Shown piece after piece: positions 2,074 through 16,716 of a stretch of DNA of 17,970 nucleotides. The notes beneath the pieces are model-generated. The model made no database searches. It was not told the DNA's origin and saw nothing but the letters and a program-made list of their open reading frames with translations. Every line of letters begins with the position of its first letter. The stretch's first letter is position 1. The stretch is taken from positions 1 through 17,970 of the IMG/VR virus record IMGVR_UViG_2648501130_000005; one strand, given 5' to 3'. Source of the DNA: a virus. Taxonomy: Duplodnaviria; Heunggongvirae; Uroviricota; Caudoviricetes. A program made the translations under genes and the position numbers.

Positions 2074-2095
2074 TCCTCACGCTCCATAAATGACA

Positions 2096-2115
2096 AAACC
2101 GCCCGCAGGCGGTTT
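2096..2115 (-). terminator. Hairpin between the I-like stop and J-like start (perfect 8-bp stem, 4-nt loop, T-rich tail on minus strand)
   Basis: AAACCGCC cgca GGCGGTTT; on the minus strand the stem is followed by TTTTGTCATTT. Same intergenic arrangement as I recall for lambda I-J; may be an attenuator or stability element rather than a full terminator. Confidence 0.4.
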
Positions 2116-2133
2116 CACATAAAACATTTTGCA

Positions 2134-3060
2134 TCAGCGACCAATCACCACAACCTGACCACCGTCCCCTTCGTCTGCCGTGCTGATCTCCTGAGAAACC
2201 ACGCGAGACCCCACGCGCATTTCCCCGTACAGAACAGGCAGAACATTGCCCTGGGCAACCATGTTATCCAGTGAGGAGAAATAGGTGTTCTGCTTACCGT
2301 TATCCGTTGTCTGTGTACGGGGAGTTCTGGCTTTCGGTGCCAGCATCTGCGCCACACCACCGAGCACCATACTGGCACCGAGAGAAAACAGGATGCCGGT
2401 CATACCACCGGTCCCAATGGCTGCCCCCCATGCTGCAAGGGTGGCTCCGGCGGTAAAGAATGATCCGGCAATGGCGGCAGCCCCCAGGACAATCTGGAAT
2501 ACGCCACCTGACTTGGCCCCGGCGACTCTGGGAACAATATGAATCACAGCGCCATCAGGCAGAGTCTCATGTAACTGCGCCGTTAATATGTGCTGTTTGA
2601 GTTGACTTTCTTTTGCCGCATAGCCGTCACTTTTGCCGCGATATGGCCCCTGGTAATGTTCAGCAAACAGAACGCGTTCTGTTGCGGGAAAATATGCGCG
2701 CAGACTTTCTTTATTACACCCGTTCCATCGTCCGGACGGCTTCGCCCAGATAATATGGTTAAGAACGTTGAAACGTTCACGCATCATGATCTCGATATCA
2801 GATGCGAGGCGATGTCCACAGAACAGGTAAAGGCTTCCGGCAGGTTTCAGCACCCGCCAGAACTGAGCCAGACAGTGGTCCAGCCACTTCAGGTAATCTT
2901 CGTCCCCTTTCCACTGATTGTCCCAGCCGTTGGGTTTCACCTTGAAGTACGGCGGATCGGTAACAATCAGGTCAATGGAATCATCAGGCAGGGACTGAAT
3001 AAAATGCAGGCAATCAGCGTTGATTAAATCAACACTGTTTATTTTTACAGTATTTTTCAT
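2134..3060 (-). CDS. Chimeric ORF: N-terminal ~165 aa of a beta-class DNA methyltransferase (DPPY motif, no AdoMet-binding motif) fused in frame to the C-terminal ~140 aa of tail assembly protein I
   Basis: N-terminus has DLIVTDPPYF (motif IV) but no FxGxG motif follows. From about residue 166 the sequence (TAQLHETLPDGAVIHIVPRVAGAKSGG ... GGQVVVIGR) matches my recollection of the lambda gpI C-terminus. Junction at about nt 2582/2583. Probably a non-functional fusion. Confidence 0.65.
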   Translation of the reverse strand: MKNTVKINSVDLINADCLHFIQSLPDDSIDLIVTDPPYFKVKPNGWDNQWKGDEDYLKWLDHCLAQFWRVLKPAGSLYLFCGHRLASDIEIMMRERFNVLNHIIWAKPSGRWNGCNKESLRAYFPATERVLFAEHYQGPYRGKSDGYAAKESQLKQHILTAQLHETLPDGAVIHIVPRVAGAKSGGVFQIVLGAAAIAGSFFTAGATLAAWGAAIGTGGMTGILFSLGASMVLGGVAQMLAPKARTPRTQTTDNGKQNTYFSSLDNMVAQGNVLPVLYGEMRVGSRVVSQEISTADEGDGGQVVVIGR

Positions 3061-3209
3061 GGATCAGTAAGCGTAACTCTGGTAGGCTCACTCTGCTTTT
3101 GCGCTAAAGCAGTGGGCCGTGGTTCGCTTGTGACCAGTAAGCATGAGCGAATGGCTGGCAGGTGCTACCAACACCCACCAGCCGCCCATTTTCACAAATT
3201 AAAAGCCCT

Positions 3210-3404
3210 TCATTGCTGAAGGCGTCTGTAACAGCCGAACTGGTAATCTGCCAGCCCCGCCATAACCAACTGGGTCAGTATTAACTGACAGCGTTCGCGT
3301 GAAAGGTATGTGTTTTGTGCAATCTCCCCGACTGTTGCCGGTTCGATGCTTAATTCATTAAAAACAACTTTCGCCGTTTCTGTCATATCTTGCTGTTTTA
3401 GCAT
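3210..3404 (-). CDS. Small putative winged-helix DNA-binding protein (64 aa), function unknown
   Basis: 64-codon ORF with AAGGT 11 nt upstream of the ATG; the central segment ATVGEIAQNTYLSRERCQLILTQLVMAGL looks like a helix-turn-helix. Divergent from the KAP NTPase gene. Start could instead be the internal Met at 3386. Confidence 0.45.
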   Translation of the reverse strand: MLKQQDMTETAKVVFNELSIEPATVGEIAQNTYLSRERCQLILTQLVMAGLADYQFGCYRRLQQ

Positions 3405-3527
3405 GTCTTTTTACCTTCATGGTTAACATGACATACCAATAACTCTTGTCTAAAAAGCCAGCAAGATAAAAAATCAGTATTCACTACCACCAGCGTGTTT
3501 ACCGTACTGCACCAGGTTTACAGGTAC

Positions 3528-3553
3528 AAAAAAACCCGCTCGACAGCGGGTTT
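3528..3553 (-). terminator. Intrinsic terminator on minus strand (8-bp perfect stem, 5-nt loop, U-run)
   Basis: Plus strand reads AAAAAAA-CCCGCT-cgaca-GCGGGTTT, so the minus-strand RNA has the stem followed by a run of U. No annotated minus-strand gene lies immediately upstream. Confidence 0.5.
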
Positions 3554-3676
3554 AAGCTGTGTGGCGAAGTAACCACTCTTAACAGATTACAAGAATTTTT
3601 GCGGACCGCGTTAATGATTTTTAATCCCAAAGTCGTATTATTCGTTTTTTACTGTAGGAGTTAATAGGTTTATATT

Positions 3677-5008
3677 ATGTTAGATACACTATCTTTCACT
3701 GAACGTGACGAGTTCCAACGAAGAAACATCGCTGAAAATATCATCAAGTTGCTAAAACCAGAGGCAGACATTTCACCACTGGTAATAGACGGCGCATGGG
3801 GAACAGGGAAAACAGAATTTAGTATCAAACTGAAAAATCTCATTATTGAGCAAGAAACTGAATCTAAAGTTGTTTATATTGATGCCTTTAAAGGGGATCA
3901 TGCAGAATCTCCATTACTTCTCATAACCTCTGCAATTGCCAGCATTTTGCCTGAGGAAGAAAAACAACACTTCATTAAGAGATCTCTTCCTGCAATTCGC
4001 TTTGGTTTAAAAACGGTACTAAAAGCTGGTGCAGGTTGGTTTTTACGACAGGAGGCTAGTGAAGTTGCCGAAGAATTCCAAGATGCGATGAAGAAAGCAA
4101 GCAATGCAGCAATAGATGGGACTATTGAAAATTTGCTTGAAGACCATATGGACTCAGAGAAAAACATAAATTCACTTAAATCCTGCATCGAAAGCATATC
4201 AAAAAATCAAAAAATCGTAATTATAATTGATGAATTAGACCGATGTAAGCCGAGTTTTTCAACAAATGTCATTGAAACAATAAAACACATTTTTGACATC
4301 AATAATGTCTTTTTTATTTTAGTTACAAACACAGAACAATTAAAAGCATCTATAAATCATATTTATGGTTATAGCATTAACTCACAAAAGTATCTTGACA
4401 AGTTTATAAAATATACCATCACGCTTCCAGATACATGTTTGATAAATGGTCACAACGTATGTAAAGCCTCTGTTATATATTGGGATTACCTTGTAGAAAA
4501 AACAAGGTTATTGAATAAAATCAATAGATTATCAGGTTACTTTATCCGTGATTTAATTCAACGAACCAACTTATCATTACGTGAAACACAAACATTTTCA
4601 CGCAATCTTAACATTTTCCAACTGTTAAACGACGATGAGAACAAAAGCAGTGATCCTTTAATAAATATGATCTTTGTCGTAGCTGCCTTCATACATTGCT
4701 TTGGTAACAAGGAAAAACTAAAACAAGAAATTACCGCTGAATCTATATCTTATTTAGCAGACCTGCTTAACATAAAAGAAATACCTTATTCTTATGAGAG
4801 AAGATCGCAAATCCCTGAAATATCGATTGTATTCTTCGGAATAATTAAAGACAGTATTACTCTTAATGAGCGATTTGCCCCTAAAAGTGATGAAGAACTT
4901 AAAAAATTCACAAATGTTTATACTGATTATGAACACATAAATTTTTGGAGTACTACACCCAGAGAGTTATTGATAAAATATATTAATCAAATGTCATTCA
5001 TCCAGTAA
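3677..5008 (+). CDS. KAP-family P-loop NTPase (443 aa)
   Basis: Walker A DGAWGTGKT and the KAP-typical Walker B region IVIIIDELDRCKP. Visibly AT-rich with long A/T runs compared with flanking genes. Ends at the hairpin at 5011-5035. Confidence 0.85.
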   Translation: MLDTLSFTERDEFQRRNIAENIIKLLKPEADISPLVIDGAWGTGKTEFSIKLKNLIIEQETESKVVYIDAFKGDHAESPLLLITSAIASILPEEEKQHFIKRSLPAIRFGLKTVLKAGAGWFLRQEASEVAEEFQDAMKKASNAAIDGTIENLLEDHMDSEKNINSLKSCIESISKNQKIVIIIDELDRCKPSFSTNVIETIKHIFDINNVFFILVTNTEQLKASINHIYGYSINSQKYLDKFIKYTITLPDTCLINGHNVCKASVIYWDYLVEKTRLLNKINRLSGYFIRDLIQRTNLSLRETQTFSRNLNIFQLLNDDENKSSDPLINMIFVVAAFIHCFGNKEKLKQEITAESISYLADLLNIKEIPYSYERRSQIPEISIVFFGIIKDSITLNERFAPKSDEELKKFTNVYTDYEHINFWSTTPRELLIKYINQMSFIQ

Positions 5009-5010
5009 AT

Positions 5011-5035
5011 AATACGCCCCATGCAGGGGCGTATT
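5011..5035. terminator. Bidirectional intrinsic terminator between convergent KAP NTPase and Q genes
   Basis: Perfect 10-bp inverted repeat AATACGCCCC / GGGGCGTATT with loop ATGCA, sitting exactly between the KAP stop (5008) and the Q stop (5037), with A/T-rich flanks on both sides. Confidence 0.6.
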
Positions 5036-5036
5036 A

Positions 5037-5402
5037 TTAAACGTCCAAATCTAATGTTAGATCTAGCATGGAAAGGCAGCCATCAATAAATCCTTCGGCT
5101 AGCTGTATTTCTATACGTATCAATTTCTCATCTTTTTTACGAGCCTTGGCGAGCTTTCTTTTAGAGATACCGTATAGGTAATGGGCAACAAGAAGCGAAT
5201 GTTCGTCCGGCCTTTTTTGCTTTAGATGAGCAAGACAACCTTCAATAATTAAGGCATCACTATCCGAACAAGCCAAGCGTTTCTTGCTTGTATAGGGAAG
5301 AAGTCCCTTAAACCCAGCGGCTATAGGTGAATAATCAACGCCTGAACTATCACTCGCCGCCCATGCCCCCCAACGCTCCAGAACCATCTGAATATCACGC
5401 AT
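5037..5402 (-). CDS. Antitermination protein Q (QuuD-like lambdoid late-gene antiterminator)
   Basis: N-terminus MRDIQMVLERWGAWAA... is the signature I recall for E. coli prophage Q/QuuD proteins. ATG at 5402 with GGTGGAGA upstream; the track's first residue is a TTG one codon earlier. Confidence 0.8.
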   Translation of the reverse strand: MRDIQMVLERWGAWAASDSSGVDYSPIAAGFKGLLPYTSKKRLACSDSDALIIEGCLAHLKQKRPDEHSLLVAHYLYGISKRKLAKARKKDEKLIRIEIQLAEGFIDGCLSMLDLTLDLDV

Positions 5403-5419
5403 CAACTTTCTCCACCAAA

Positions 5420-6415
5420 TCAGGCTAGCACACCAATTGCCAACACACGGTCGATAAAACGAAATATCAGCTCCAGCTGGGAGCCATACTTCTCTTCAAA
5501 TGCCACGGTATCCGCATGCAGCTCGTCGTGATGCTTTCTGCACAAAGGCAACACAAAGAGGTCATGCGCTTTTGTACTCATTCCCCCCTGACCGTGGCCT
5601 ATCAGGTGGTGGGGATCATCAGCAGGCTTTCCACAACATGCACACGGCTGTGTCTTAACCCAGCGCGTGTACTTTTCATTAACCCAGCGGCGACGTTTGG
5701 GGCGTAACATAAAAGACTCCGGCGACTCCGGTTCCACTTTCAGCGCCAGCACCTTTTTCGCTTTATCCTGCATGATGCTGGTGGCTGGAACCGAAGGCAC
5801 AAGGTCACTTTCCCGGGTGACAGACGGCACAACAGGCTTCGGTAATCTCAGTGCCTTACGGGCTGCGCTTTCCGGTAAGGCATCCGCCAGATCATTACGA
5901 ACCAGCCACCAGCACAGTTCCGGCATTGTCACAACGTGACTATCATCAAAACCGAGATCCCGACGCACAACAGACAACACCCAGCGGGCACAGTTATCCG
6001 TTGCCATTGATTCCAGCCGTTCCGTGAACTGATCGCGCAGTTGGTTATCGCAGTGCCAGCACAGACGGATTGCGCCAGGCGCGTGTCGCATTGTGGTCAT
6101 GTTCTCGCTGTGCCAGTTGGAATGAGGCCACTGGCAGCCTTTTTCACGAAGTAACCAGCTTTCAAGACATTCCACGCCACCAGCACGACGGATCACTGCC
6201 TCATTGCGGAACACGGCCCGAACGGCAGGATCATCCGCCAGCGGTTGTGATGCCGCCGGAACGGCACCACTGGCGAAAGATGAATAACGTTCCGGCTCAG
6301 GCTCCAGCAGTACACGCCCCTGCATAAACAGGGGCATCAACTCTGAACCTGGCCTGAACAATACGATCCCCATACGCGGGGCAATTTCAGGGGTCAGTAG
6401 TGCTCTCACGGTCAC
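5420..6415 (-). CDS. DUF968-like nin-region protein with C-terminal HNH-like Cys/His motif
   Basis: C-terminal CACCGKPADDPHHLIGHGQGG...LCRKHHDELH; placed between KilA-N and Q as in lambdoid nin regions. Start uncertain: GTG at 6415 or 6409, or ATG at 6373; none has a clean SD. Confidence 0.6.
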   Translation of the reverse strand: MTVRALLTPEIAPRMGIVLFRPGSELMPLFMQGRVLLEPEPERYSSFASGAVPAASQPLADDPAVRAVFRNEAVIRRAGGVECLESWLLREKGCQWPHSNWHSENMTTMRHAPGAIRLCWHCDNQLRDQFTERLESMATDNCARWVLSVVRRDLGFDDSHVVTMPELCWWLVRNDLADALPESAARKALRLPKPVVPSVTRESDLVPSVPATSIMQDKAKKVLALKVEPESPESFMLRPKRRRWVNEKYTRWVKTQPCACCGKPADDPHHLIGHGQGGMSTKAHDLFVLPLCRKHHDELHADTVAFEEKYGSQLELIFRFIDRVLAIGVLA

Positions 6416-6416
6416 C

Positions 6417-7226
6417 TCAATGAACGGTATCGAGCAGCTTTAACAGCTCAGGGAATCGGGATTCGAAGAAATGCGGCTGCGTCTCGCGCGGATTTGCAGG
6501 ACTGGTGATGTTCTTGCCGAACATGCAGCCTTTCGCCGTCAGCGACCAGAATTTTTTGATGTTGTTAATCGCTGTACGGCTGTATCGTTCGCGCTGTTCG
6601 ACGATCCCCAGCTTCGCCATCTGGTGATATGCCTGATTAGCCGTAAGGCGGATACCATACTGTTTCAGCAGTGCACTCAGCGACAGTGTCGGGCGACTTG
6701 AGCCATCAGGCGCGTCAGCAGGAGCATCAATGGCATAGCGCGGTGCCAGATTCGGTAAGCCAACAGCCTCCTGGAGTTTCTGACAGGCCCCAAGCACTGA
6801 AGAGTTAGACAGGTTTAACTCCCTGCGCATAAAGTCCAGCAGAATCACGCCAGCCTGCATCTTGTCAGCAGCCTGCCCGGATAATTTTTCCGGTGCGCTG
6901 GTTACCATATCGAAAGTACGGATCACCTTCAGATGGAATGACGGGCTGATCCACATTGCATAGGCATACACCAGTTCTTTGCAGACATACGTCCCCTGGT
7001 TATTTCCGCCATTAATGACGCTAACTGGTTGATTTTGTTCCAGAGGCGGAATTCCACCCTCGGTGAAAAGTTGTTCAATCAATTCACAGGTTTGCTTATT
7101 GGAGAGCCAGTATTTCGGGCGGTTTTTTTGTTCTCCCCCGGCTGCCCTGTGCAGATCGTTCAGGCTGTAACGCCCATAAGCATCACGACGAACTTCAATA
7201 CCATCAATGACCATCAGATTATTCAT
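6417..7226 (-). CDS. KilA-N domain protein
   Basis: N-terminal MVIDGIEVRRDAYGRYSLNDLHRAAGG...YVCKELVYAYAMWISPSFHLKVIR is KilA-N-like. ATG at 7226 with AGGAGA 9 nt upstream; the track's GTG at 7259 was rejected. Confidence 0.7.
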   Translation of the reverse strand: MNNLMVIDGIEVRRDAYGRYSLNDLHRAAGGEQKNRPKYWLSNKQTCELIEQLFTEGGIPPLEQNQPVSVINGGNNQGTYVCKELVYAYAMWISPSFHLKVIRTFDMVTSAPEKLSGQAADKMQAGVILLDFMRRELNLSNSSVLGACQKLQEAVGLPNLAPRYAIDAPADAPDGSSRPTLSLSALLKQYGIRLTANQAYHQMAKLGIVEQRERYSRTAINNIKKFWSLTAKGCMFGKNITSPANPRETQPHFFESRFPELLKLLDTVH

Positions 7227-7245
7227 ACTTCGTTTCTCCTCTTGA

Positions 7246-7635
7246 TCAGGCGGCTGCACCCGCCGTTTTCTCGTACTTACTGATAGTGATCTCGACCTTC
7301 CCTTCCGGGATAACCGGTCCCCACTCCACCAGCATTCTTTTCACCTGGCTGTCGTCTTCCCACACACCCGCGTGGGTCAGGGCGTCAAACAGCGCCTTGT
7401 TATAGTTGTCCAGATCGCGGATCCGGTTATCCGGAGGAAACAACACGATCTCCACTGAAGCAGGTGCCGACGTTGGTTTCGGCAGACGACGTAACTGCTC
7501 AACTATTGCTGTGCACGCCGCACTTTGGAATTTTCGCCCCGCCGCGCTTATCAGGCTCTTACCAGCAAATGCCCCTTTGTTGGGGTGTCGCCAGTAGGTG
7601 TTCACGCTGGGTGGAAAAGGCAGAATCAGCTTCAT
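7246..7635 (-). CDS. rusA: Holliday junction resolvase RusA
   Basis: LPFPPSVNTYWRH ... RDLDNYNKALFDALTHAGVWEDDSQV matches the RusA family signature. Start ATG overlaps the upstream stop (ATGA). Confidence 0.85.
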   Translation of the reverse strand: MKLILPFPPSVNTYWRHPNKGAFAGKSLISAAGRKFQSAACTAIVEQLRRLPKPTSAPASVEIVLFPPDNRIRDLDNYNKALFDALTHAGVWEDDSQVKRMLVEWGPVIPEGKVEITISKYEKTAGAAA

Positions 7636-7958
7636 ACTTTCAGCCCCCTCTCATGTAACCAGTGGGCTGCACGCAGCCTTGCGTTTTCCTCACCGGCAAG
7701 CAGTGAGCGGATAATCCCGACCGCCTCGCTGTCGTCGTCCTTCACCGCGGTATGAAGCGTGATCCCCCGGGCCACACCACGCTTTATCGTGATGACGCCT
7801 TTTTTCTCCAGTGCGCGAAGATGCTCCACCGCTGCATTCACCGAACGGTATCCCAGCATGGTTGCCACCTCCTGATTGGTTGGCGGGAAGCCGCGTTCTT
7901 TCTGATAAGAAATCAGCATATCCAGCACCTGCTGCTGGCATTGAGTTAACGTCGTCAT
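7632..7958 (-). CDS. LexA N-terminal DNA-binding-domain-like protein (no peptidase domain)
   Basis: LTQCQQQVLDMLISYQKERGFPPTNQEVATMLGYRSVNAAVEHLRALEKKGVITIKRGVARGITL aligns closely with the LexA N-terminal winged helix as I recall it (…RSPNAAEEHLKALARKGVIEI…). Only 108 aa, so no S24 cleavage domain. ATGA overlaps at both ends. Confidence 0.75.
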   Translation of the reverse strand: MTTLTQCQQQVLDMLISYQKERGFPPTNQEVATMLGYRSVNAAVEHLRALEKKGVITIKRGVARGITLHTAVKDDDSEAVGIIRSLLAGEENARLRAAHWLHERGLKV

Positions 7959-8608
7959 GCCGCCATCTCCCTGACCAGTTTTTCTGCCTGCTGGCGAATC
8001 TGCGCCAGAAAGGCCTCACCACATGCCTCAAGTTCATCGCGCCCGATGTAGCTGATTGCCGGTCCCTTCCAGGTCTTGTCGAAAACAGCAATAGCACCAG
8101 CGAAGAAAGCGCCTGTCGGCACCTGCTTCTCATCCTTCGGGATAAACCAGGCAGGCAGTTCAAAACCAATACGCCCGCGAATAAAAGCAATATGATCTAC
8201 ATCTTCCGGCCACCACACTTCGCTGGTGGCAGCTTTGATCAGGAAAACATAGCGCCCGCCTTTATCACGCATGGCACTGGCATGCTTCATGATGTAACGC
8301 ATGCCGGTGATGTATTGCCCCTCATGCTGACTGGCGCGGCTGTATGGGGGATTACCAAAGGCAGCACCTTTAAGCTCCGCAAGGCGTTCTGACCAGTCAT
8401 GCGCCAGCGCGTTGTCTTCCGCCGTGTAATACGCAGCACATTTGGCGTTATCACCGTCAGTGAACAGATCCAGAACAAACGGGCCAAACAGGGTGTTAAT
8501 TCCCCAGAAAATGTTGTCCGGCGTGCGCCACTGATCGCCCACTTCCTTCAGTTCATGGGCTGGTTTGTTCCGCAGTTCCACCAGCGCCTGGCAATATTTA
8601 TTACTCAT
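7955..8608 (-). CDS. Phage N6-adenine DNA methyltransferase (Dam-type)
   Basis: GNPPYS (NPPY catalytic motif). ATG at 8608 with GTGGGGG upstream, overlapping the upstream TAA (TAATG). The track's GTG extension to 8641 was rejected. Confidence 0.75.
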   Translation of the reverse strand: MSNKYCQALVELRNKPAHELKEVGDQWRTPDNIFWGINTLFGPFVLDLFTDGDNAKCAAYYTAEDNALAHDWSERLAELKGAAFGNPPYSRASQHEGQYITGMRYIMKHASAMRDKGGRYVFLIKAATSEVWWPEDVDHIAFIRGRIGFELPAWFIPKDEKQVPTGAFFAGAIAVFDKTWKGPAISYIGRDELEACGEAFLAQIRQQAEKLVREMAA

Positions 8609-9096
8609 TAAGCCCCCACGTAATTCCCTGAGAGATACCACTCTTCACCTGATGCAGCCCGCTTACTGCTTTTCCGTAAACACCGTTCACGACGCGCCAA
8701 AAAATTGTTTCGTTCTGGCAGGGAGTGGCTTTCACGGAATGCCGCCATCCACACCGTTGCAGCACGACGGTATAAGCCCCTGGACTCCAGTTCTTCCGCC
8801 TGGCGGGTCAGGCACAAAATCACCCGCGGGTCGTTAGTGCCGACATAGAAATTGCGCACAGGTCTGGTTTCACGAACTGGTTGTGGTTCCGGATCCTGCG
8901 CTCTCTCAGTCAGGCGCGGGAAATGTCTGTGTGTATCTCCTTCACAACGGTGAGCCACACGCCCACTCTGACGTAACTTGCTTGCTGACTGCAGAACGCG
9001 CTGCCGTGAGTAACCTGCAAAAGCATCCGCAATGTCTCCGGAAGTACAGCCCGGATGGGCTTCAATGAATTTCTGAACGTCATTCAAAAGACTCAT
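8608..9096 (-). CDS. Putative transcriptional regulator with PerC-like C-terminal region
   Basis: AEELESRGLYRRAATVWMAAF resembles the PerC/Pch core motif (LESAGFWRRAAARW type). ATG at 9096 with GGGGGTGA upstream, 2 nt after the replication gene stop. Confidence 0.55.
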   Translation of the reverse strand: MSLLNDVQKFIEAHPGCTSGDIADAFAGYSRQRVLQSASKLRQSGRVAHRCEGDTHRHFPRLTERAQDPEPQPVRETRPVRNFYVGTNDPRVILCLTRQAEELESRGLYRRAATVWMAAFRESHSLPERNNFLARRERCLRKSSKRAASGEEWYLSGNYVGA

Positions 9097-9098
9097 GC

Positions 9099-9869
9099 TC
9101 ACCCCCTGAATCCTGCCGGGATCTGGCTGTAGTCCACATTGTCGTAACTGGCTTTGAAGTACGGGTCTTCGCGTTTTTCTGTGTACGTGCTGACGGACGG
9201 CGATAAGCGCAGGGAAAGCTCATCCCATTTTTCCCGCAGCTTCGACGGGCTGAGCACGTTACGGCACCAGAACGGATCGCGGCTGACGCGGCTGTACATC
9301 TCGCAGATTTGTTTGTGAGTACGACCATCCTGCACACACATCAGGCGAATTTCGTTTGCCCAGGCTGTCCAGTTCGGTTCTTTGGGACGAACCACCTCGC
9401 CGTCACATTCGGCAGCCTGCTCGTACAGGGCGATGATTTTTTTCCAGAGCCACTGTGCGCAGGTCAAATCATCCTGCGTCCCCCACTGGCGCTTTTTAGG
9501 GCTGAATACAACCGCATCAGGATGGCGAGTTAAAAAATCCTGTTCATCCGTCTGCGTGTCCGGTTGCGAAGCGTCCGGACGAGAAGGTTTTTTATCTGAC
9601 GGATCATGTTTTGATTTTACTGACGGATCCCCGCCAGATTCTGACGGGTGAAAACCCGCTTTTTTGCCAGATTTCGACGCATCAAATTTTGACGGGTCAG
9701 ATTTTGATGCGTCAGATTTTGACGGGTCAGAATCTGACAGTTGAGAAAATGCCGCTGCCTGAAGCTTCGCAACGTTAAGCTGATAAACATTCGACGCATT
9801 GCGGTTACCCACGGTTAGCCTCATCGTTCTGTGGTTTCTGTTAATCGATTTATCCATTAGATTTTTCAT
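9099..9869 (-). CDS. Replication initiation protein (lambda O-like role) with internal iteron-encoded peptide repeats
   Basis: Sits directly downstream of cro. The central SDSDPSKSDASKSDPSKFDASKSG region is encoded by tandem DNA repeats. Start uncertain: ATG at 9869, 9857 or 9824; the track's first codon at 9926 is GTG and lies deep inside cro. Confidence 0.6.
   Translation of the reverse strand: MKNLMDKSINRNHRTMRLTVGNRNASNVYQLNVAKLQAAAFSQLSDSDPSKSDASKSDPSKFDASKSGKKAGFHPSESGGDPSVKSKHDPSDKKPSRPDASQPDTQTDEQDFLTRHPDAVVFSPKKRQWGTQDDLTCAQWLWKKIIALYEQAAECDGEVVRPKEPNWTAWANEIRLMCVQDGRTHKQICEMYSRVSRDPFWCRNVLSPSKLREKWDELSLRLSPSVSTYTEKREDPYFKASYDNVDYSQIPAGFRG
9590..9740. repeat. Iteron array (putative origin of replication) inside the replication initiator gene
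   Basis: At least seven tandem ~15-17 bp copies of a (C)AGATTTTGACGGGTCA-like unit, e.g. attttgacgggtcag / attttgatgcgtcag / attttgacgggtcag. Analogous to the lambda ori iterons inside gene O. Confidence 0.6.
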
Positions 9870-10050
9870 AAAGCTCAGGTTTAAATGGCAACCGTCCGCA
9901 AGTTCTATATGCAGCTTCTGCTGCACGTCCTTTTGGAATTAACTGGCCCGGACGGTTTCGCCACTGATAAACGGCTTCAGTTGTTATGCCGAAAAAAGCA
10001 GCAACTTTCTCAATACTGCCGAAGTAGCTTTCGATATCGTCAGTTGTCAT
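9850..10050 (-). CDS. Cro-like transcriptional regulator
   Basis: 66 aa, divergent from the repressor gene; KVAAFFGITTEAVYQWR is a Cro/YdaS-type helix-turn-helix. Confidence 0.7.
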   Translation of the reverse strand: MTTDDIESYFGSIEKVAAFFGITTEAVYQWRNRPGQLIPKGRAAEAAYRTCGRLPFKPELYEKSNG

Positions 10051-10147
10051 ACGCCCTCCAAACTAAGTTTTATTAGATGCTAATTACAAATCTATCTTTG
10101 GTCAATAAAAACTAAGATTACTTAGCAATTAAAGAAATGGTGCTCCT
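10051..10147. promoter_or_regulatory. Divergent promoter/operator region between cro-like and cI-like genes
   Basis: 97-bp AT-rich intergenic region with two 14-bp palindromes: CTAAGattaCTTAG (10112-10125, perfect) and CTAAGttttATTAG (10063-10076, one mismatch). Minus strand carries TTGACC and a possible -10. Confidence 0.55.
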
Positions 10148-10774
10148 ATGGAAACGGTTGGTCAGCGTATAAAAGCTCTGAGAAGAGTTACCAGAACGTC
10201 CCAGAAAGAATTGGGTAAATTTTGTGGAGTAAGCGACGTTGCTGTGGGGTACTGGGAGAAAGACATCAATACCCCTGGTGGGGAGGCACTTTCGAAATTA
10301 GCGAAGTTCTTCAATACGTCAATAGATTACATTCTTTATGGTGCTGAGTTTGAAGGCAAACTCGTCACAAACATGCGCAGAGTTCCTGTAATATCGTGGG
10401 TTCAGGCTGGGCAGTTTACTGAGTGCAGGGCAGCAGAAGTGTTTAGTGAAGTGGACAAGTGGGTAGATACATCATTAAAGGTTGGTGATAACTCATTTGC
10501 ATTAGAGGTTAAAGGTGACTCCATGACTAACCCTAATGGCCTCCCAACAATACCAGAAGGCGCAACAGTGATTGTAGATCCAGATGCAGAACCTCGTCAT
10601 GGAAAAATAGTCATCGCTCGACTTGATGGAACAAACGAAGCTACAGTAAAAAAATTAGTCATCGATGGCCCTCAAAAGTTTTTAGTACCATTAAATCCTC
10701 GGTATCCCAACATCCCTATCAATGGTAATTGCCTTATCATTGGTGTAGTCAAAGGAGTTCAATACGAACTCTAA
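10148..10774 (+). CDS. CI-like prophage repressor (HTH plus S24 LexA-type autopeptidase domain)
   Basis: N-terminal XRE-type HTH (QKELGKFCGVSDVAVGYWE); C-terminal GDSM and a downstream Lys (VKKLV) typical of S24 self-cleaving repressors. SD-like sequence before the ATG. Confidence 0.85.
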   Translation: METVGQRIKALRRVTRTSQKELGKFCGVSDVAVGYWEKDINTPGGEALSKLAKFFNTSIDYILYGAEFEGKLVTNMRRVPVISWVQAGQFTECRAAEVFSEVDKWVDTSLKVGDNSFALEVKGDSMTNPNGLPTIPEGATVIVDPDAEPRHGKIVIARLDGTNEATVKKLVIDGPQKFLVPLNPRYPNIPINGNCLIIGVVKGVQYEL

Positions 10775-10927
10775 GGCCTCTCTTCTCTAACTAAGGCACC
10801 GAACTAAGAAAAGTTTGGTGTTTTCTCTTGCCATGACAACTAAGTTAAGTTAGATTTTATATCAAAGATAACGAACAGGCAGGACGCCCACGAAGTAGCC
10901 GCCTGGGGCATATGAAGTCCAGGATGA

Positions 10928-10952
10928 TTCGTTAGCAACAAAAAAGCGCCCT
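10928..10952 (-). terminator. Intrinsic terminator on minus strand downstream of the 173-aa gene
   Basis: On the minus-strand RNA: 7-bp stem AGCGUCC / GGGCGCU (one G-U pair), loop UGUA, then UUUUUUGUU. The G-U pair forms only on the minus-strand transcript. Confidence 0.5.
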
Positions 10953-11004
10953 ACAGGACGCTTAGCTCTTTAACAATCTGGGTATCATCCAACCAATGCA
11001 AGAT

Positions 11005-11526
11005 TTAAGGAATCCAAGGCGAATTCAGATCTCGCCCCAACTCACGTAATGATCTTGGTCGTTCGTACATCGGATTTTTTTCCATAAGAAATTTATTTTC
11101 ACAGTGAAGGCAACGGCTTGTAAGAAAATGAGAAGTTTTACCTACTGGAAGCGGATGAAGTATCGATTTTATATTTTTGGAATAACAAAGTGGGCACAGA
11201 TGCACAGTTATTTCTTTTCCACTCACAATTTCATTTTTAGAGTAAACAAAAGCACCAGAGTCAAGCTGATCAAGGACATATCCTTCTACCTTGGCACAAA
11301 AATCTTCAAACTCTGCAATTTTTGCTTTGAGATGCATCACCTCTTCATCACGAAGGCGGATCGCATCGCCAAGAGAGAAGCATTCTGCCTGAAGCGTGAT
11401 TAGTTTGTTCTGGAGTTCAATGGTTGCAGCTTTAACTTCTGCATCCGTTTTCGCGTCATTAATAACCTTAGCAAGACCGGCAGTCTCCTTTATAGCGGCC
11501 ATAGCCGCAGACAGTTCAGCTATCAC
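11005..11526 (-). CDS. Hypothetical coiled-coil / zinc-ribbon protein (moron convergent with cI)
   Basis: 173-codon ORF; N-terminal half is Ala/Lys/Glu-rich helical, C-terminal part has CPLC ... CLHC. C-terminal half is visibly AT-rich. Start is GTG at 11526 or ATG at 11502; neither has a strong SD. Confidence 0.6.
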   Translation of the reverse strand: MIAELSAAMAAIKETAGLAKVINDAKTDAEVKAATIELQNKLITLQAECFSLGDAIRLRDEEVMHLKAKIAEFEDFCAKVEGYVLDQLDSGAFVYSKNEIVSGKEITVHLCPLCYSKNIKSILHPLPVGKTSHFLTSRCLHCENKFLMEKNPMYERPRSLRELGRDLNSPWIP

Positions 11527-11542
11527 GTTGAATACTCAGCTA

Positions 11543-11586
11543 GTTGTTGGGGATATCCAGATTAACCAAATCCTTGTTGTTGGGGA
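11543..11586. repeat. Two exact 11-bp direct repeats GTTGTTGGGGA, 33 bp apart, just upstream of the 173-aa gene
   Basis: Seen directly at 11543-11553 and 11576-11586; function unknown. Confidence 0.5.
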
Positions 11587-11848
11587 ATAACTAGGTCCAC
11601 CTCGCCTGATGTGGCTAAAAGCAGGCACATAACAGCTAAGTATTTTCAACCAGAGAGAATCCTTAGCGTTGTGGTGAATGCGGCTCAGCGCACGCGGGTT
11701 AAGGTTGAGGCTGACAGTCGACCTTCTGTGGATACCCACCCGCCTGGTGTGCAACCTTCGCCAGGCACCGGGAGGCACCCGGCACCACAACTTTATGCTG
11801 TGTGTAGTCCTCGCGGTACCAGTTTGTACACTTGCTTCCGGCTGGTAC

Positions 11849-11947
11849 CGCTCTTTTTACAAAACAGAGAAGAACATCACCGGACGACGGGCTCATAACC
11901 CAATCCATCCGGGCGGCTGCCACCGCAGGTGTTCTTCTCTGTTTTGT
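11849..11947 (+). promoter_or_regulatory. boxA-like motif followed by an 18-bp perfect inverted repeat enclosing 53 nt (nut-like site or structured leader)
   Basis: CGCTCTTTTTAC (11849-11860) resembles boxA. Arms ACAAAACAGAGAAGAACA (11859-11876) and TGTTCTTCTCTGTTTTGT (11930-11947) are exact reverse complements. Lies 49 nt upstream of the yfdP-like ATG. Confidence 0.45.
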
Positions 11948-11995
11948 GGAGAAACCAACCGACCTTGCAGGGTCGATATGATTAGGAGCAGAAAA

Positions 11996-12358
11996 ATGGC
12001 TAGCGAACGCAGTACTGATGTGCAGGCATTTATTGGGGAGCTGGACGGCGGCGTATTTGAAACCAAAATCGGCGCAGTTCTCAGTGAAGTCGCTTCCGGT
12101 GTGATGAACACGAAAACCAAAGGTAAGGTCTCACTCAACCTGGAAATCGAACCATTTGATGAGAACCGTGTGAAAATCAAACACAAACTCTCATATGTTC
12201 GCCCGACTAACCGCGGGAAAATTTCCGAAGAAGACACCACCGAAACGCCGATGTATGTCAATCGCGGTGGTCGCCTGACTATTCTGCAGGAAGACCAGGG
12301 ACAATTACTGACTCTTGCCGGTGAACCTGACGGAAAACTCCGCGCAGCAGGTCATTAA
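11996..12358 (+). CDS. yfdP: YfdP-like early-left protein (120 aa)
   Basis: ATG at 11996 with AGGAG 7 nt upstream; the track ORF from 11678 is an unsupported upstream extension. Length and position match the yfdP-yfdQ-yfdR order I recall from CPS-53. Confidence 0.55.
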   Translation: MASERSTDVQAFIGELDGGVFETKIGAVLSEVASGVMNTKTKGKVSLNLEIEPFDENRVKIKHKLSYVRPTNRGKISEEDTTETPMYVNRGGRLTILQEDQGQLLTLAGEPDGKLRAAGH

Positions 12359-12423
12359 TATCGTTCTTAATTAACCGATTATTTATCTCATCACTGAATA
12401 TCTTTATATAGTGAGGACTTATT

Positions 12424-13248
12424 ATGTCTCAGAACTTAGACGCAACCGCAATTAATCAAATCCATGCCCTTATTTCTGCTCAGGGTGTTAATGAAATTAT
12501 CAGTAAGATTGGTGCCGATGCTGTGGCATTGCCTGAGAATTTCCGCATTCATGATCTGGAAAAATTTAATTTAAATCGCTTCCGTTTCCGTGGTGCGCTT
12601 TCCACTGCCAGCATCGATGACTTTACCCGTTACTCTAAAGATCTTGCAGATGAAGGCACCCGCTGCTTTATCGATGCCGATAATATGCGAGCCGTCAGTG
12701 TGCTTAACCTGGGTACTATTGATGAACCAGGTCACGCAGATAACACCGCCACACTCAAACTGAAAAAGACAGCACCGTTCTCTGCTCTGTTGTCTATTAA
12801 CGGCGAGCGTAACTCCCAGAAGTCACTAGCAGAATGGATTGAAGACTGGGCAGACTATCTTGTGGGCTTTGATGCTAATGGTGACGCTATTCAGGCAACA
12901 AAAGCGGCTGCGGCTGTCCGTAAAATCACGATTGAAGCAAACCAGACCGCTGATTTTGAAGATAATGACTTCAGCGGCAAACGCTCCCTGATGGAGTCTG
13001 TCGAAGCGAAGACCAAAGATATTATGCCTGTGGCATTTGAATTTAAATGCGTTCCGTTTGAAGGCCTGAAAGAACGTCCGTTTAAATTACGCCTCAGCAT
13101 TATCACTGGCGATCGTCCTGTACTGGTTCTGCGCATTATTCAGCTGGAAGCAGTGCAGGAAGAAATGGCTAACGAATTTCGTGATCTGCTTGTTGAGAAA
13201 TTCAAGGACAGCAAAGTAGAAACCTTTATTGGTACTTTCACCGCCTGA
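12424..13248 (+). CDS. yfdQ: YfdQ-like protein (DUF2303 family, 274 aa)
   Basis: GAGGA 6 nt upstream of the ATG. Length and N-terminus [14 protein letters not shown]... match my recollection of K-12 YfdQ. Confidence 0.7.
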
Positions 13249-13260
13249 TTTCATTACTGC

Positions 13261-13282
13261 AAATGCCCCTGCGGGGGCATTT
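13261..13282 (+). terminator. Hairpin downstream of yfdQ-like gene (possible partial terminator or attenuator)
   Basis: AAATGCCCC tgcg GGGGCATTT: perfect 9-bp stem, but only a short T-run follows. Confidence 0.4.
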
Positions 13283-13375
13283 ATGGAAACGTAATTGACT
13301 CAATAATCGCCGGATGGTGAGGGCTTCCTTTTACCAGAATTCAGCGCGGTGCAGCGCATATACGTGGAGAACAAA

Positions 13376-13912
13376 ATGTCATTTATTAAAACTTTTTCCG
13401 GGAAGCATTTTTATTATGACAGGATAAATAAAGACGACATCGTTATTAACGATATCGCGGTTTCTCTTTCAAATATCTGTCGCTTTGCAGGGCATCTTTC
13501 ACATTTCTACAGCGTTGCCCAACATGCGGTGCTTTGCAGCCAACTGGTACCGCAGGAATTTGCTTTTGAAGCGTTAATGCATGATGCAACAGAAGCGTAT
13601 TGCCAGGACATCCCGGCGCCACTGAAACGCCTTCTTCCTGACTATAAACGGATGGAAGAAAAAATAGATGCAGTAATCCGTGAGAAATACGAGTTGCCCC
13701 CGGTTATGAGCACGCCCGTGAAATATGCCGATCTCATCATGCTGGCAACCGAACGCCGTGATCTCGGGCTTGATGATGGCTCTTTATGGCCTGTACTGGA
13801 AGGTATCCCGGCAACAGAGATGTTCAAAGTTATTCCACTGGCACCGGGCCATGCCTACGGGATGTTTATGGAACGCTTCAACGAGTTATCGGAATTACGC
13901 AAATGTGCATAA
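13376..13912 (+). CDS. yfdR: HD-domain phosphohydrolase (YfdR-like, 178 aa)
   Basis: H...HD motif (AQHAV ... LMHDATEAY). ATG at 13376 with GGAGA upstream; the track's GTG at 13349 was rejected. Its 3' end overlaps the next gene by 10 nt. Confidence 0.8.
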   Translation: MSFIKTFSGKHFYYDRINKDDIVINDIAVSLSNICRFAGHLSHFYSVAQHAVLCSQLVPQEFAFEALMHDATEAYCQDIPAPLKRLLPDYKRMEEKIDAVIREKYELPPVMSTPVKYADLIMLATERRDLGLDDGSLWPVLEGIPATEMFKVIPLAPGHAYGMFMERFNELSELRKCA

Positions 13913-14781
13913 CTCATGTAGTTAGTTTTTCTGGCGGGAGAACATCCGCATATCTTGTTCACCTGATGGAAGAACAAAGAAAGGCTGGCAATAACGTCTG
14001 CTACATCTTTATGGATACCGGTTGCGAACATCCGCTGACATACCGCTTTATCCGGGAGGTTGTGAAGTTCTGGGACATACCACTAACTGTGTTACAGGTC
14101 GATATAAATCCTGAGCTTGGGCAGCCAAATGGTTATACAGAATGGGAGCCAAAGGATATTCAGACACGAATGCCGGTGCTTAAACCGTTTATGGACATGG
14201 TTAAAAAGTACGGCACGCCATACATCGGCGGCGCGCTCTGTACTGATAGGCTAAAACTCATCCCTTTCACAAAATACTGCGATAACCATTTCGGGCGAGG
14301 TAATTACATCACATGGCTGGGTATTCGTGCAGACGAACCCCGTAGGCTGAAACCGAAATCGGGCGTCCGGTATCTTGCCGAGCTGTCAGATTTTGATAAG
14401 TCGGATGTTATCCGGTGGTGGCGAAAACAACCTTTTGATTTGCAAATCCCGGAGCATCTCGGGAACTGTGTTTTCTGCATCAAAAAGTCAACGCAAAAGC
14501 TGGGGCTTGCATGTAAAGACGAACCAGGTCTGATGCGAGTTTTTAATGAGCTGGTTACAGGCAAACACGTCAGGGATGGTCATCGCAGAACAGGTAAAGA
14601 CATTATGTACCGTGGTCACCTGACGCTTGACGGAATTGCCAGAATGTCTGCCAACAGCGACTACAGAAATTTGTATCAGGCGATGGTACAGGCCAGGCGA
14701 TTCGATACCGGCTCGTGTTCAGAGTCATGTGAAATCTGGGGTGATCAATTGGAATTGGAATTCAAAGAGGTAGGGGTATGA
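13903..14781 (+). CDS. PAPS-reductase-like PP-loop ATP pyrophosphatase family protein with C-terminal Cys cluster
   Basis: PP-loop VVSFSGGRTSAYL near the N-terminus; Cys pairs (CVFC, CSESC) near the C-terminus. ATG at 13903 overlaps the HD gene stop; the track's 13786 start is an upstream in-frame extension inside the HD gene. Confidence 0.8.
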   Translation: MCITHVVSFSGGRTSAYLVHLMEEQRKAGNNVCYIFMDTGCEHPLTYRFIREVVKFWDIPLTVLQVDINPELGQPNGYTEWEPKDIQTRMPVLKPFMDMVKKYGTPYIGGALCTDRLKLIPFTKYCDNHFGRGNYITWLGIRADEPRRLKPKSGVRYLAELSDFDKSDVIRWWRKQPFDLQIPEHLGNCVFCIKKSTQKLGLACKDEPGLMRVFNELVTGKHVRDGHRRTGKDIMYRGHLTLDGIARMSANSDYRNLYQAMVQARRFDTGSCSESCEIWGDQLELEFKEVGV

Positions 14782-15122
14782 CAACCGAAATTAACTACCA
14801 TGCACTGCTTGAGCGCGCACGGAATAAAGTGCAGAGCATTGAGTTCGCCTTAACACAGAGTGCATTCGCTGAGATTCGCGCTGAGCTTGAAAATGATTTA
14901 GAACTGGCACGGATTGCACTGGCATCTCTGGAAGTTGAGCCAGATGAACGCGCAGCCTATGAATTATTTATGGAAAAGCGTTTCGGTAAAACAGTCGATC
15001 GTCGGAGAGCAAAAAACGGCGATAACGAATACATGGCATGGGATATGACTCTCGGTTGGATCGTCTGGCAGCAACGAGCTGGTATCCATTTTTCAACAAT
15101 GTCACAGCAAGAGGTGAAATAA
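14778..15122 (+). CDS. Hypothetical early protein (114 aa)
   Basis: ATG overlaps the upstream TGA (ATGA) and its TAA overlaps the xis ATG (TAATG). GAGG/GGGG upstream. No recognisable motif. Confidence 0.6.
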   Translation: MTTEINYHALLERARNKVQSIEFALTQSAFAEIRAELENDLELARIALASLEVEPDERAAYELFMEKRFGKTVDRRRAKNGDNEYMAWDMTLGWIVWQQRAGIHFSTMSQQEVK

Positions 15123-15472
15123 TGGAGCCATACAGCCTCACACTCGATGAGGCCTGTCATTTTCTCAAGATATCCAGACCGACTGCCATTAACTGGATAC
15201 GCACAGGGCGTCTTCAGGCAACACGCAAAGATCCCACTAAGAATAAATCTCCTTACCTCACAACACGACAAGCCTGCATTGCGGCTCTTCAGTCTCCGCT
15301 GCATACTGTCCAGGTGAGCGCGGGTGATGGCATAACAGAGGAAAGAAAATGTCACTCTTCCGCAGAGGTGAAATATGGTACGCCAGTTTCACATTGCCGA
15401 ACGGTAAAAGATTTAAACAGTCTCTTGGAACAAAGGACAAAAGGCAGGCGACAGAACTCCATGACAAGCTAA
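15122..15472 (+). CDS. xis: Excisionase (Xis), 116 aa
   Basis: ATG at 15122 with GAGGTGA upstream. HTH-like [24 protein letters not shown]. Overlaps the int start as in lambda/P22 xis-int. The track's 15038 start is an unsupported extension. Confidence 0.7.
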
Positions 15473-16512
15473 AGGCTGAAGCATGGCGGGTCAGCAAACT
15501 TGGTGAAATACCTGATATAACGTTCGAGGAAGCGTGTGTCAGGTGGCTTGAAGAGAAAGCACATAAAAAATCACTGGACGATGACAAAAGCCGGATCGGA
15601 TTCTGGCTTCAACATTTCGCAGGAATGCAACTAAGAGACATTACTGAATCAAAAATTTATTCAGCAATGCAGAAAATGACGAACCGGCGTCATGAGGAAA
15701 ACTGGAAACTCAGGGCAGAAGCATGCAGAAAAAAAGGGAAACCTGTTCCAGAATACACGCCAAAACCAGCGTCCGTTGCAACGAAGGCTACGCATCTTTC
15801 ATTTATAAAGGCCCTACTAAGAGCCGCAGAGCGTGAATGGAAAATGCTGGATAAGGCACCAATTATTAAAGTGCCTCAACCAAAGAATAAACGGATCCGC
15901 TGGCTGGAGCCCCATGAAGCACAAAGGCTGATTGATGAATGTCCGGAGCCATTAAAGTCTGTTGTTGAATTTGCACTGGCAACAGGCTTAAGACGCTCGA
16001 ACATCATCAACCTTGAATGGCAACAAATAGATATGCAGCGCCGGGTGGCATGGATAAACCCAGAAGAGAGTAAATCAAACCGCGCAATCGGCGTTGCGCT
16101 GAATGATACTGCATGTCGCGTTTTGAAAAAACAAATCGGGAATCATCACCGTTGGGTATTTGTGTACAAGGAAAGCTGTACCAAACCAGACGGAACGAAA
16201 GCGCCAACAGTAAGGAAGATGCGGTATGACGCAAACACAGCCTGGAAAGCGGCGCTGAGACGGGCTGGTATTGATGATTTCAGATTTCACGACTTGAGAC
16301 ACACCTGGGCAAGTTGGCTGGTTCAAGCCGGAGTCCCGTTGTCAGTGTTACAGGAAATGGGAGGCTGGGAGTCTATCGAAATGGTTCGTCGATATGCTCA
16401 CCTTGCACCTAATCACCTTACCGAACACGCACGGCAAATAGACTCGATCCTGAACCCATCGGTCCCAAATTTGTCCCAGTCAAAAAATAAGGAAGGTACT
16501 AATGATGTGTAA
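15349..16512 (+). CDS. int: Tyrosine-recombinase phage integrase (P22-type, thrW-specific), 387 aa
   Basis: AGAGGAAAG upstream of the ATG. Catalytic HDLRHTW ... RYAHL motifs. Stops 14 nt before the tRNA-Thr 3' end. Confidence 0.9.
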
Positions 16513-16526
16513 CTTATTGATTTAAA

Positions 16527-16602
16527 TGGTGCCGATAATAGGAGTCGAACCTACGACCTTCGCATTACGAATGCGCTGCTCTACCAACTGAGCTATATCG
16601 GC
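16527..16602 (-). tRNA. thrW: tRNA-Thr (anticodon CGU)
   Basis: Reverse complement reads GCCGATATAGCTCAGTTGGTAGAGCAGCGCATTCGTAATGCGAAGGTCGTAGGTTCGACTCCTATTATCGGCACCA: 7-bp acceptor stem, GTTCGA T-loop, anticodon loop with CGT, encoded CCA. Confidence 0.9.
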
Positions 16603-16716
16603 CCTGAAAGGACATGTTCACGAACGTGAATCACGGTGGACAAGGTTAAAACTAACCGGGCGATGCGTCAATGGCCTTGTGAATCAAATGGCTACTTTTG
16701 CATCACCCGGTTTTAT

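Follow-up and report, generated by a model that had tools for sequence, protein, structure and literature searches.

The window analyzed here is a 17,970-nucleotide stretch of viral DNA (Caudoviricetes; IMG/VR record IMGVR_UViG_2648501130_000005, positions 1 to 17,970), and our subject is an array of short repeats at 9582-9739, on the coding (minus) strand of a gene for an O-like replication initiator. From comparison with its relatives we propose, with a probability of about 0.75, that the array is the cis-acting replication origin of a lambdoid prophage of the SfII/CPS-53 type, that it lies in the linker-coding part of the initiator gene, and that it has been orphaned by a 1,124-bp deletion. 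The first-pass annotation of this DNA had suggested a putative prophage origin that parallels the lambda origin (ori-lambda) inside gene O. The comparative evidence supports that suggestion, but not its implication that the window holds an initiator able to use the origin. The array is constrained at the DNA level, is inherited together with a winged helix-turn-helix (wHTH) domain, adjoins the least stable, A/T-rich segment of the gene, and belongs to a gene whose C-terminal domain is homologous to that of lambda O, and a control analysis of lambda O recovered the known origin; the origin idea is therefore well supported.

The array and the initiator gene

Repeats had been noted at 9590-9740, and they are real. 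Tandem Repeats Finder reported an array at 9668-9731 (period 15, 4.3 copies, 81% matches; also period 30, 2.1 copies, 88% matches). Two motifs cluster in the region, and in each case the window total was reached in none of 200 dinucleotide-preserving shuffles. The 10-bp core TGAYGSRTCA, with at most one mismatch, has seven distinct sites at 9597-9729, and the 11-bp palindrome TCARAWTCTGR has six sites in 9634-9737 against three elsewhere in the 18 kb. The period had been put at about 15-17 bp; it is exactly 15 bp, and the wider range did not stand. The 15-bp unit is palindromic and consists of TCARAWTCTGAC plus three variable bases (-nnn). The parts of the array are as follows:

9667-9739, minus strand: five strictly tandem 15-bp units, the proposed initiator-binding iterons
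9645-9668, minus strand: A-tract/T-tract spacer between units 5 and 6, sense GGCAAAAAAGCGGGTTTTCACCCG
9634-9644, minus strand: sixth unit, 33 bp from the fifth, sense TCAGAATCTGG
9606-9629 and 9582-9605, minus strand: two 24-bp A/T-rich GATC boxes, sense GATCCGTCAGTAAAATCAAAACAT and GATCCGTCAGATAAAAAACCTTCT

In the sense direction the five tandem units read TCAGATTCTGAC-CCG / TCAAAATCTGAC-GCA / TCAAAATCTGAC-CCG / TCAAAATTTGAT-GCG / TCGAAATCTGGC, and each contains an 11-bp dyad, TCARA-W-TYTGA. The 24-bp boxes, each of which begins with GATC (9626-9629 and 9602-9605), are a repeat distinct from the 15-bp unit but share with it a CCGTCAG core. The claim of at least seven tandem repeats thus holds for the number of CCGTCAG cores but not for their arrangement, as only five are strictly tandem, the sixth is set apart, and two belong to the GATC boxes. 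The sixth unit is retained even where relatives have lost most of the tandem units. The spacer has an A6...T4 pattern that is kept in relatives; on the plus (antisense) strand it scores weakly as an intrinsic-terminator-like hairpin, but the hairpin is not conserved. The spacer is therefore more likely to be a bending or spacing element than a terminator.

The repeats were said to lie inside a coding sequence and to encode a repetitive peptide, and they do: on the minus strand the units follow the reading frame, with five codons in each 15 bp, and give (D/S)(P/A)SKS pentapeptides of the DPSKS/DASKS type. The hairpin potential of the array is strong (z = -5.0), in line with its nested palindromes. 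No Rfam family matched across the array, and an RNA gene was rejected on anatomical grounds. DnaA boxes are not enriched, and none lies within 9580-9745. We agree with the first-pass annotation that this is not a CRISPR (clustered regularly interspaced short palindromic repeats) array: there are no unique spacers, the units abut with 3-4 variable bases and are in frame within a coding sequence, and the array is conserved across species.

The open reading frame (ORF) that holds the array spans 9099..9926 on the minus strand. The parts of its initiator-derived product are:

9099-9812, minus strand: truncated O-like initiator ORF, 237 aa (phrog_391)
9744-9809, minus strand: winged-helix remnant, comprising the second wing strand and last helix, residues 78-99 (predicted strand 85-88, helix 90-99)
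9129-9545, minus strand: helical domain at the C-terminus, with homology to that of lambda O and phi80 gp15
9102-9128, minus strand: C-terminal tail SQIPAGFRG, matching the extreme C-terminus of Escherichia coli DnaT (SQIPPGFRG)

The window ORF matched PHROG 391 (“replication initiation O-like”) with an E value of 3.5e-97, over profile positions 75-298 only, and a Pfam search of the truncated ORF found no domain. The array is thus in an O-type initiator gene, as proposed, but the gene had been taken as intact, and codons 1-77 are deleted. Of the helices of the DNA-binding domain, the window copy retains only the last.

The intact initiator has 313 residues and matches the O protein of Shigella phage SfII with 100% identity. 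In Pfam, residues 23-70 belong to the winged-helix family HTH_36; matches to DnaD_N and RP-C are weak, and the N-terminal domain has no Phage_rep_O match at E ≤ 1. In an AlphaFold2 model, residues 3-99 form a winged helix (predicted local distance difference test score [pLDDT] ~70-88), the repeat-encoded stretch 102-164 has a pLDDT of 30-39 and is predicted to be a disordered linker, and residues 164-278 form a helical domain. The repeats themselves code for approximately residues 102-150, between the N-terminal DNA-binding domain and the C-terminal domain. The predicted fold of the N-terminal domain resembles MarR/ArsR-type DNA binders, and a sequence search of solved structures gave weak MarR-type wHTH matches only. 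This HTH_36-type initiator family is large, with 2,374 homologues at E ≤ 1e-5.

The homology to lambda O lies in the C-terminal domain; the N-terminal domain, as HTH_36, belongs to another Pfam family. In a tblastn search, residues 166-277 matched lambda O with 39% identity and phi80 gp15 with 35% (E about 1e-17), and a WGxxxDL motif begins at residue 186 here and at residue 189 in lambda O. The IPxGFRG tail suggests, from its sequence, mimicry of a DnaT contact in phages without a P gene; in the literature searched we did not find the binding partner of the DnaT C-terminal tail defined. In a relative of the P0113 type, 14 of the last 20 residues (301-320) are identical to DnaT (E 1e-7), and an ...IPxGFRG ending is also found in many relatives with unrelated C-terminal domains.

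Constraint and inheritance of the array

An in-frame array with a repetitive product, for which disorder is predicted, could be a coding feature only, that is, a slippage-prone, low-complexity Ser/Asp/Pro/Lys linker whose DNA has no function. The number of units among relatives, from ~1 to 10, is also what slippage would give. We compared codon usage in the intact gene with that in Klebsiella phage 1 LV-2017, Citrobacter phiNP, Yersinia YeP3, and phage phiP27. Where the amino acid is identical, the same codon is used in 87, 95, 81, and 79% of cases, respectively, within the array (residues 101-150), and in 46, 49, 40, and 37% within the N-terminal domain (Fisher p = 8e-6, 5e-8, 7e-5, and 2e-4, nominal values since the sequences and the repeat units share ancestry). 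Within the array, nucleotide identity is higher than amino acid identity. Conservation at synonymous sites is thus far stronger in the array than in the folded domain beside it, whereas that of the amino acids is weaker, which speaks against a feature that serves only to encode a linker.

The serine codons give the same indication. An initial table of conservation per position was circular, as the units had been picked by their DNA pattern, and it was replaced by a test in which Ser-x-Ser tripeptides were defined on the protein alone (79 distinct linkers, n = 339). The first serine is encoded by TCA in 297 of the 339 and the second by TCT in 258; elsewhere in the same genes AGC is the commonest serine codon, and TCA and TCT account for 17% and 10%. 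This systematic difference between the two serines of a unit has no coding rationale and is exactly what the TCAGA-W-TCTGA dyad needs. Taken together, the codon comparisons show that the array is constrained as DNA and not as peptide.

The survey of relatives took one genome per species and comprised 80 loci, with 61-100% identity in the N-terminal domain, from Escherichia to Proteus and Rahnella. In 71 of these, the best tandem period downstream of the wHTH domain is 15 or 30 bp, and 79 have at least three units (mode 5, maximum 9) at gene nucleotides 280-470, where the unit density is 27.2 per kb as against 0.14 per kb elsewhere in the gene. The natural number of units ranges from ~1-2 (P0017 and Salmonella P0034) to ~10 (Klebsiella P0047). 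A pair of GATC sites 21 or 24 bp apart is present in 70 of the 80, and most positions of box 1 are conserved in at least 90% of those. A scan of viral contigs with the family alignment returned only copies of 96-100% identity and added no diversity. Conservation of the GATC boxes at 90% or more per position across genera, together with the dyad symmetry and strong hairpin potential of the units, is hard to reconcile with a purely coding feature, and we regard that explanation as highly improbable.

The gene is a mosaic. In tblastn searches, phiNP, YeP3, and phiP27 share the N-terminal part only, yet they retain the units and the boxes. The 77 complete genes have C-terminal domains of several types that are mutually unrelated by BLAST: 14 are lambda-O-like, 57 are of the phiNP/YeP3 type, 1 is of the phiP27 type, and 5 are other. 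(Types were assigned by direct comparison to four reference types, which replaced a single-linkage clustering that was too permissive.) On this comparative evidence, the array is shown to travel with the N-terminal wHTH domain across unrelated C-terminal domains. The units differ between subtypes of the wHTH domain: the P0113 type has TCAAnnnTTGAC, and the P0093 and phiP27 types have CCAGAAWCTGAAC. The GATC boxes are nearly invariant across the subtypes.

A second wHTH subgroup comprises SfV orf39, Stx2a_F403 O, Klebsiella RothC, Vibrio D67, and Aggregatibacter S1249. Its members carry, at the same place after the wHTH domain, three or four repeats that are phage-specific, wholly different from those described above, and spaced 21/24 bp. 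These repeats are probably unannotated origins of the same design. In these five loci of the SfV-type subgroup (L006-L010) the repeats lie at gene nucleotides ~264-360 with spacings of 21/21/24 bp, and they are followed by a conserved RTSHSFEPVNEP-coding segment with short repeats of its own (GAACCAGTCAA).

Anatomy of the proposed origin and a model for initiation

A nearest-neighbor scan of the gene placed its least stable 40-mer at sense nucleotides 420-459 (window 9582-9621; z 3.17, 70% A+T), directly downstream of the units and across both GATC boxes. As a positive control, we applied the same blind procedure to lambda O. It recovered the four known iterons (nucleotides 349, 369, 393, and 416) and the known AT-rich region (nucleotides 437-476; z 3.03, 78% A+T). 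A comparison with lambdoid origins had been suggested by the first-pass annotation; once run, it bore out the likeness in layout, which nearly superimposes on that of ori-lambda in gene coordinates, but not in the sequence of the units, which is unrelated.

The anatomy of the lambda origin has been described, as has the natural variation in iteron number (four in lambda and six in Stx phages) (PMC7466680). Lambda and the window have several features in common: repeats that show internal dyad symmetry and lie midway along the initiator gene, where it encodes the linker; a least stable, A/T-rich segment after them in the direction of transcription; read-through from pR (here from a predicted pR-like promoter); an initiator with a homologous C-terminal domain; and a number of repeats that varies naturally. 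They differ in the unit, which is TCARAWTCTGAC here and ATCCCTCAAAACGAGGGA in lambda, so that the window array does not fall into the lambda specificity group; in the spacing, which is 15 bp here and 20-24 bp in lambda; and in the N-terminal domain, which here is HTH_36 and not Phage_rep_O. In addition, the A/T-rich part here consists of the two GATC boxes, the protein ends in a DnaT-like tail, and no P gene follows the initiator gene.

Origins controlled by Dam contain A/T-rich repeats with GATC, examples being the 13-mers of E. coli oriC and the heptamers of the P1 plasmid origin. As in those origins, repeated A/T-rich elements starting with GATC adjoin the (proposed) initiator sites here, and a Dam methylase is available, which in this case is encoded by the phage. 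The boxes here differ in that they are 24 bp long, lie in coding sequence, and have no DnaA boxes nearby. Theta plasmids with iterons (pSC101, R6K, F, and P1) typically have iterons of 17-22 bp that are about two helical turns apart and outside the rep gene, usually with DnaA boxes. What they share with the window is an initiator of the winged-helix type, direct repeats arranged in an array, and an A/T-rich region next to it; the units here are instead palindromic, spaced 15 bp, and inside the gene, again with no DnaA boxes, and the array does not belong to that class. Two further features bear on the comparison:

10077-10105, minus strand: predicted pR-like promoter upstream of cro, which would read through the array
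7955-8641, minus strand: phage Dam-type N6-adenine methyltransferase gene, two genes downstream of the array (Dam, PF05869, E 1.3e-45)

At least 34 of the 80 relatives have a methylase gene no more than ~600 bp downstream of the initiator gene. The phage enzyme is a candidate for modifying the GATC boxes, and the recurrence of a methylase gene close to conserved boxes suggests methylation control of this type of origin.

If the region is an origin, the initiator might recognize the 21/24-bp GATC boxes, with the 15-bp units auxiliary or expendable. The boxes are the most conserved part of the module (70/80 relatives) and its strongest repeat in 9 of the 80, the tandem units can shrink to 1-2, and the repeats of the SfV-type subgroup have the same 21/24 spacing. 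Their near-invariance across wHTH subtypes whose units differ, however, fits a host-directed or unwinding element better than a determinant of specificity, and they coincide with the least stable duplex, like the AT-rich region of lambda. We consider it quite unlikely that the boxes are the true initiator sites.

Another possibility is a DNA element that is functional without being an origin: either an autoregulatory operator or roadblock by which the initiator or a different phage regulator controls the early operon, or a recombination joint for module exchange. Transcription from pR could be held back by binding sites within the gene of the initiator itself, and the region borders mosaic exchanges and deletions. 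On the other hand, the succession of units, A/T-rich segment, and GATC sites fits the anatomy of an origin and the lambda control. The breakpoints of mosaics and deletions are upstream of the array (codons 78-80) or downstream of it and not within it, and an operator leaves the conserved, least stable GATC boxes unexplained. A non-origin element is unlikely in our estimate, and autoregulation and origin function are compatible with each other.

We favor an origin in which the 15-bp units are the initiator sites. In intact phages, dimers of the N-terminal winged-helix domain would bind the palindromic units, and the resulting nucleoprotein complex would destabilize the adjacent A/T-rich GATC boxes, with 9582-9629 as the putative DNA-unwinding and Dam/SeqA-sensitive region. 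The C-terminal domain, lambda-O-like here and with a DnaT-like tail, would bring in the host helicase machinery or helicase-loading factors, and transcription from pR would pass through the site, as in lambda. The GATC boxes probably put firing under the control of Dam and SeqA. For the orphaned origin of the window to fire, the initiator would have to come in trans from another phage of the same specificity, either co-resident or superinfecting.

Several points, in addition to the nominal nature of the p values given above, weigh against an origin of this kind. The literature searched on SfII, SfIV, SfV, CPS-53, and yfdO contained no report of an origin, of initiator binding, or of origin activity, and no experiment on either activity in this phage group. 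The 15-bp spacing is shorter than the 20-24 bp of lambda and is not a whole number of helical turns. The tandem units range in number from ~1-2 to ~10, so most of them are individually dispensable. Among wHTH variants of 61-100% identity the unit varies only modestly, and covariation within the subgroup is therefore weak. The A/T-rich segment has 70% A+T, compared with 78% in lambda. Finally, no P- or DnaC-type loader gene follows the initiator gene in the SfII-type module, where yfdN (PerC) and dam follow (in the window and in an intact relative, L001, described below); a DnaC-like or P-like gene is next to the initiator gene in only 10 of the 80 relatives.

If correct, the proposal would extend the lambda design of an origin inside the initiator gene to a large and widespread initiator family of enterobacterial prophages, for which the origins have no annotation; it overturns no current view. 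It provides a testable model of the site, TCAGA-W-TCTGA dyad units followed by GATC boxes, and a simple signature by which origins could be annotated and the replication-specificity groups of SfII, SfIV, and CPS-53-like elements predicted. It would also mark which prophages of this type are still able to replicate, which the window prophage by itself is not.

The deletion and the decayed prophage

The extent of the deletion was defined by comparison with L001 (E. coli NZ_CP135488), in which the gene order is cI, cro, ymfL (CII-like), DUF4222, the 313-aa initiator gene (L001 4100-5041, annotated “HTH domain”), yfdN, and dam. Window 9000-9810 corresponds to L001 4001-4811 (100% identity) and window 9805-10900 to L001 5936-7031 (99.9%), and the intervening ~1,124 bp (L001 4812-5935), which contain initiator codons 1-77, the DUF4222 gene, and ymfL, are absent from the window. 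The junction is as follows:

9805-9810, no strand: deletion junction with 6-bp microhomology, from the comparison with L001

The annotated GTG start codon of ymfL (9812-9810) is thereby joined in frame to codon 78 of the initiator, and a further in-frame ATG is present at 9824. Matches to E. coli DNA on either side of window ~9810 never run across that point. None of 5,426 complete E. coli genomes contains the junction, a 34-nt junction probe had no match among 185,579 species-representative genomes, and exact-sequence look-ups of the fused 237-aa and 241-aa products found no match; the deletion is apparently unique to this prophage. One candidate for the same truncation, P0032 (236 aa, starting at G78), was rejected as a set of contig-end fragments.

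The array DNA in the window is intact and 100% identical to that of functional-looking relatives. The window does not, however, contain a functional origin-initiator pair in cis, as codons 1-77 of the initiator are deleted. By this reading of the sequence, the window origin therefore could not be fired by its own initiator and would be silent unless an initiator were supplied in trans. The deletion removes the whole helix-turn-helix, and autonomous replication of a clone of this copy is therefore expected to fail.

Other breaks lie near the same point. E. coli YD786 has this prophage too, with 100% identity on either side, but its deletion is a different one (L001 3668-4802): it does not overlap that of the window, takes away the array and the C-terminal domain instead, and ends within 9 bp of the window breakpoint (L099 9160-9166). 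In E. coli ECDA1023 (L154 1201-1437) the gene is broken at codon ~79 and fused to terminase-like sequence, and in several assemblies (L096-L098) contigs end exactly at codon 78. These breakpoints, clustered at codons 78-80 (~70 bp upstream of the array), may mark a mosaic boundary or a hot spot for deletions.

The orphaned origin and truncated initiator could also be a selected state, in which the surviving in-frame product and the intact array serve as a decoy, drawing off the initiator, or host loading factors, from superinfecting SfII-type phages. In that scenario codons 78-80 would be a hot spot for the ends of independent deletions, as seen in the window, YD786, and ECDA1023, each event would disable replication of the prophage, and the breakpoints themselves might stem from the collapse of forks at an origin that fires in situ. 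We give this scenario only a small chance of being right.

The window is a decayed prophage at thrW, next to proA. The features that define its boundary and its early region are:

16717-17970, minus strand: proA, flanking the tRNA-Thr gene and marking the prophage-chromosome junction
16527-16602, minus strand: tRNA-Thr (CGT), the thrW attachment site used by SfII-type phages
15349-16512, plus strand: tyrosine integrase gene, flanking the tRNA-Thr gene
10148-10774, plus strand: CI-type repressor gene (HTH_3 and Peptidase_S24)
9850-10050, minus strand: cro-like gene upstream of the fused ORF (P22_Cro, E 4e-11)

The window has the same gene module as the cryptic prophage CPS-53/KpLE1 of E. coli K-12 (yfdN-yfdO-yfdP) and Shigella phages SfII and SfIV, with homologues of yfdN, yfdP, yfdQ, and yfdR flanking; it differs from these elements in its position at thrW/proA and in its own deletion.

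An ORF at 2134-3060 (minus strand), adjacent to region 1-2100, joins the N-terminal part of a DNA methylase to a C-terminus like that of lambda tail assembly protein I. In the YD786 counterpart, both pieces are partial pseudogenes in the Prokaryotic Genome Annotation Pipeline (PGAP) annotation and lie beside the gpJ tail-tip gene. The ORF is a further deletion scar and shows that the late region has been lost from the prophage. Between this scar and the Q antiterminator gene (5037-5405) there is, on the opposite strand (3677-5008, plus), a gene for a KAP-family P-loop NTPase (E 9e-71), which may be a moron or defense-type cargo. A match to STnc100, a gammaproteobacterial small RNA family of Rfam, lies at 11638-11860 (plus strand; 49.1 bits against a gathering threshold of 47), between a 173-aa ORF (11005-11526) and yfdP-like genes. 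Lastly, a 108-aa protein encoded at 7632-7958 (minus strand) has a LexA DNA-binding domain only (E 3e-19), with no peptidase domain; its gene lies between dam and rusA and is conserved in relatives.

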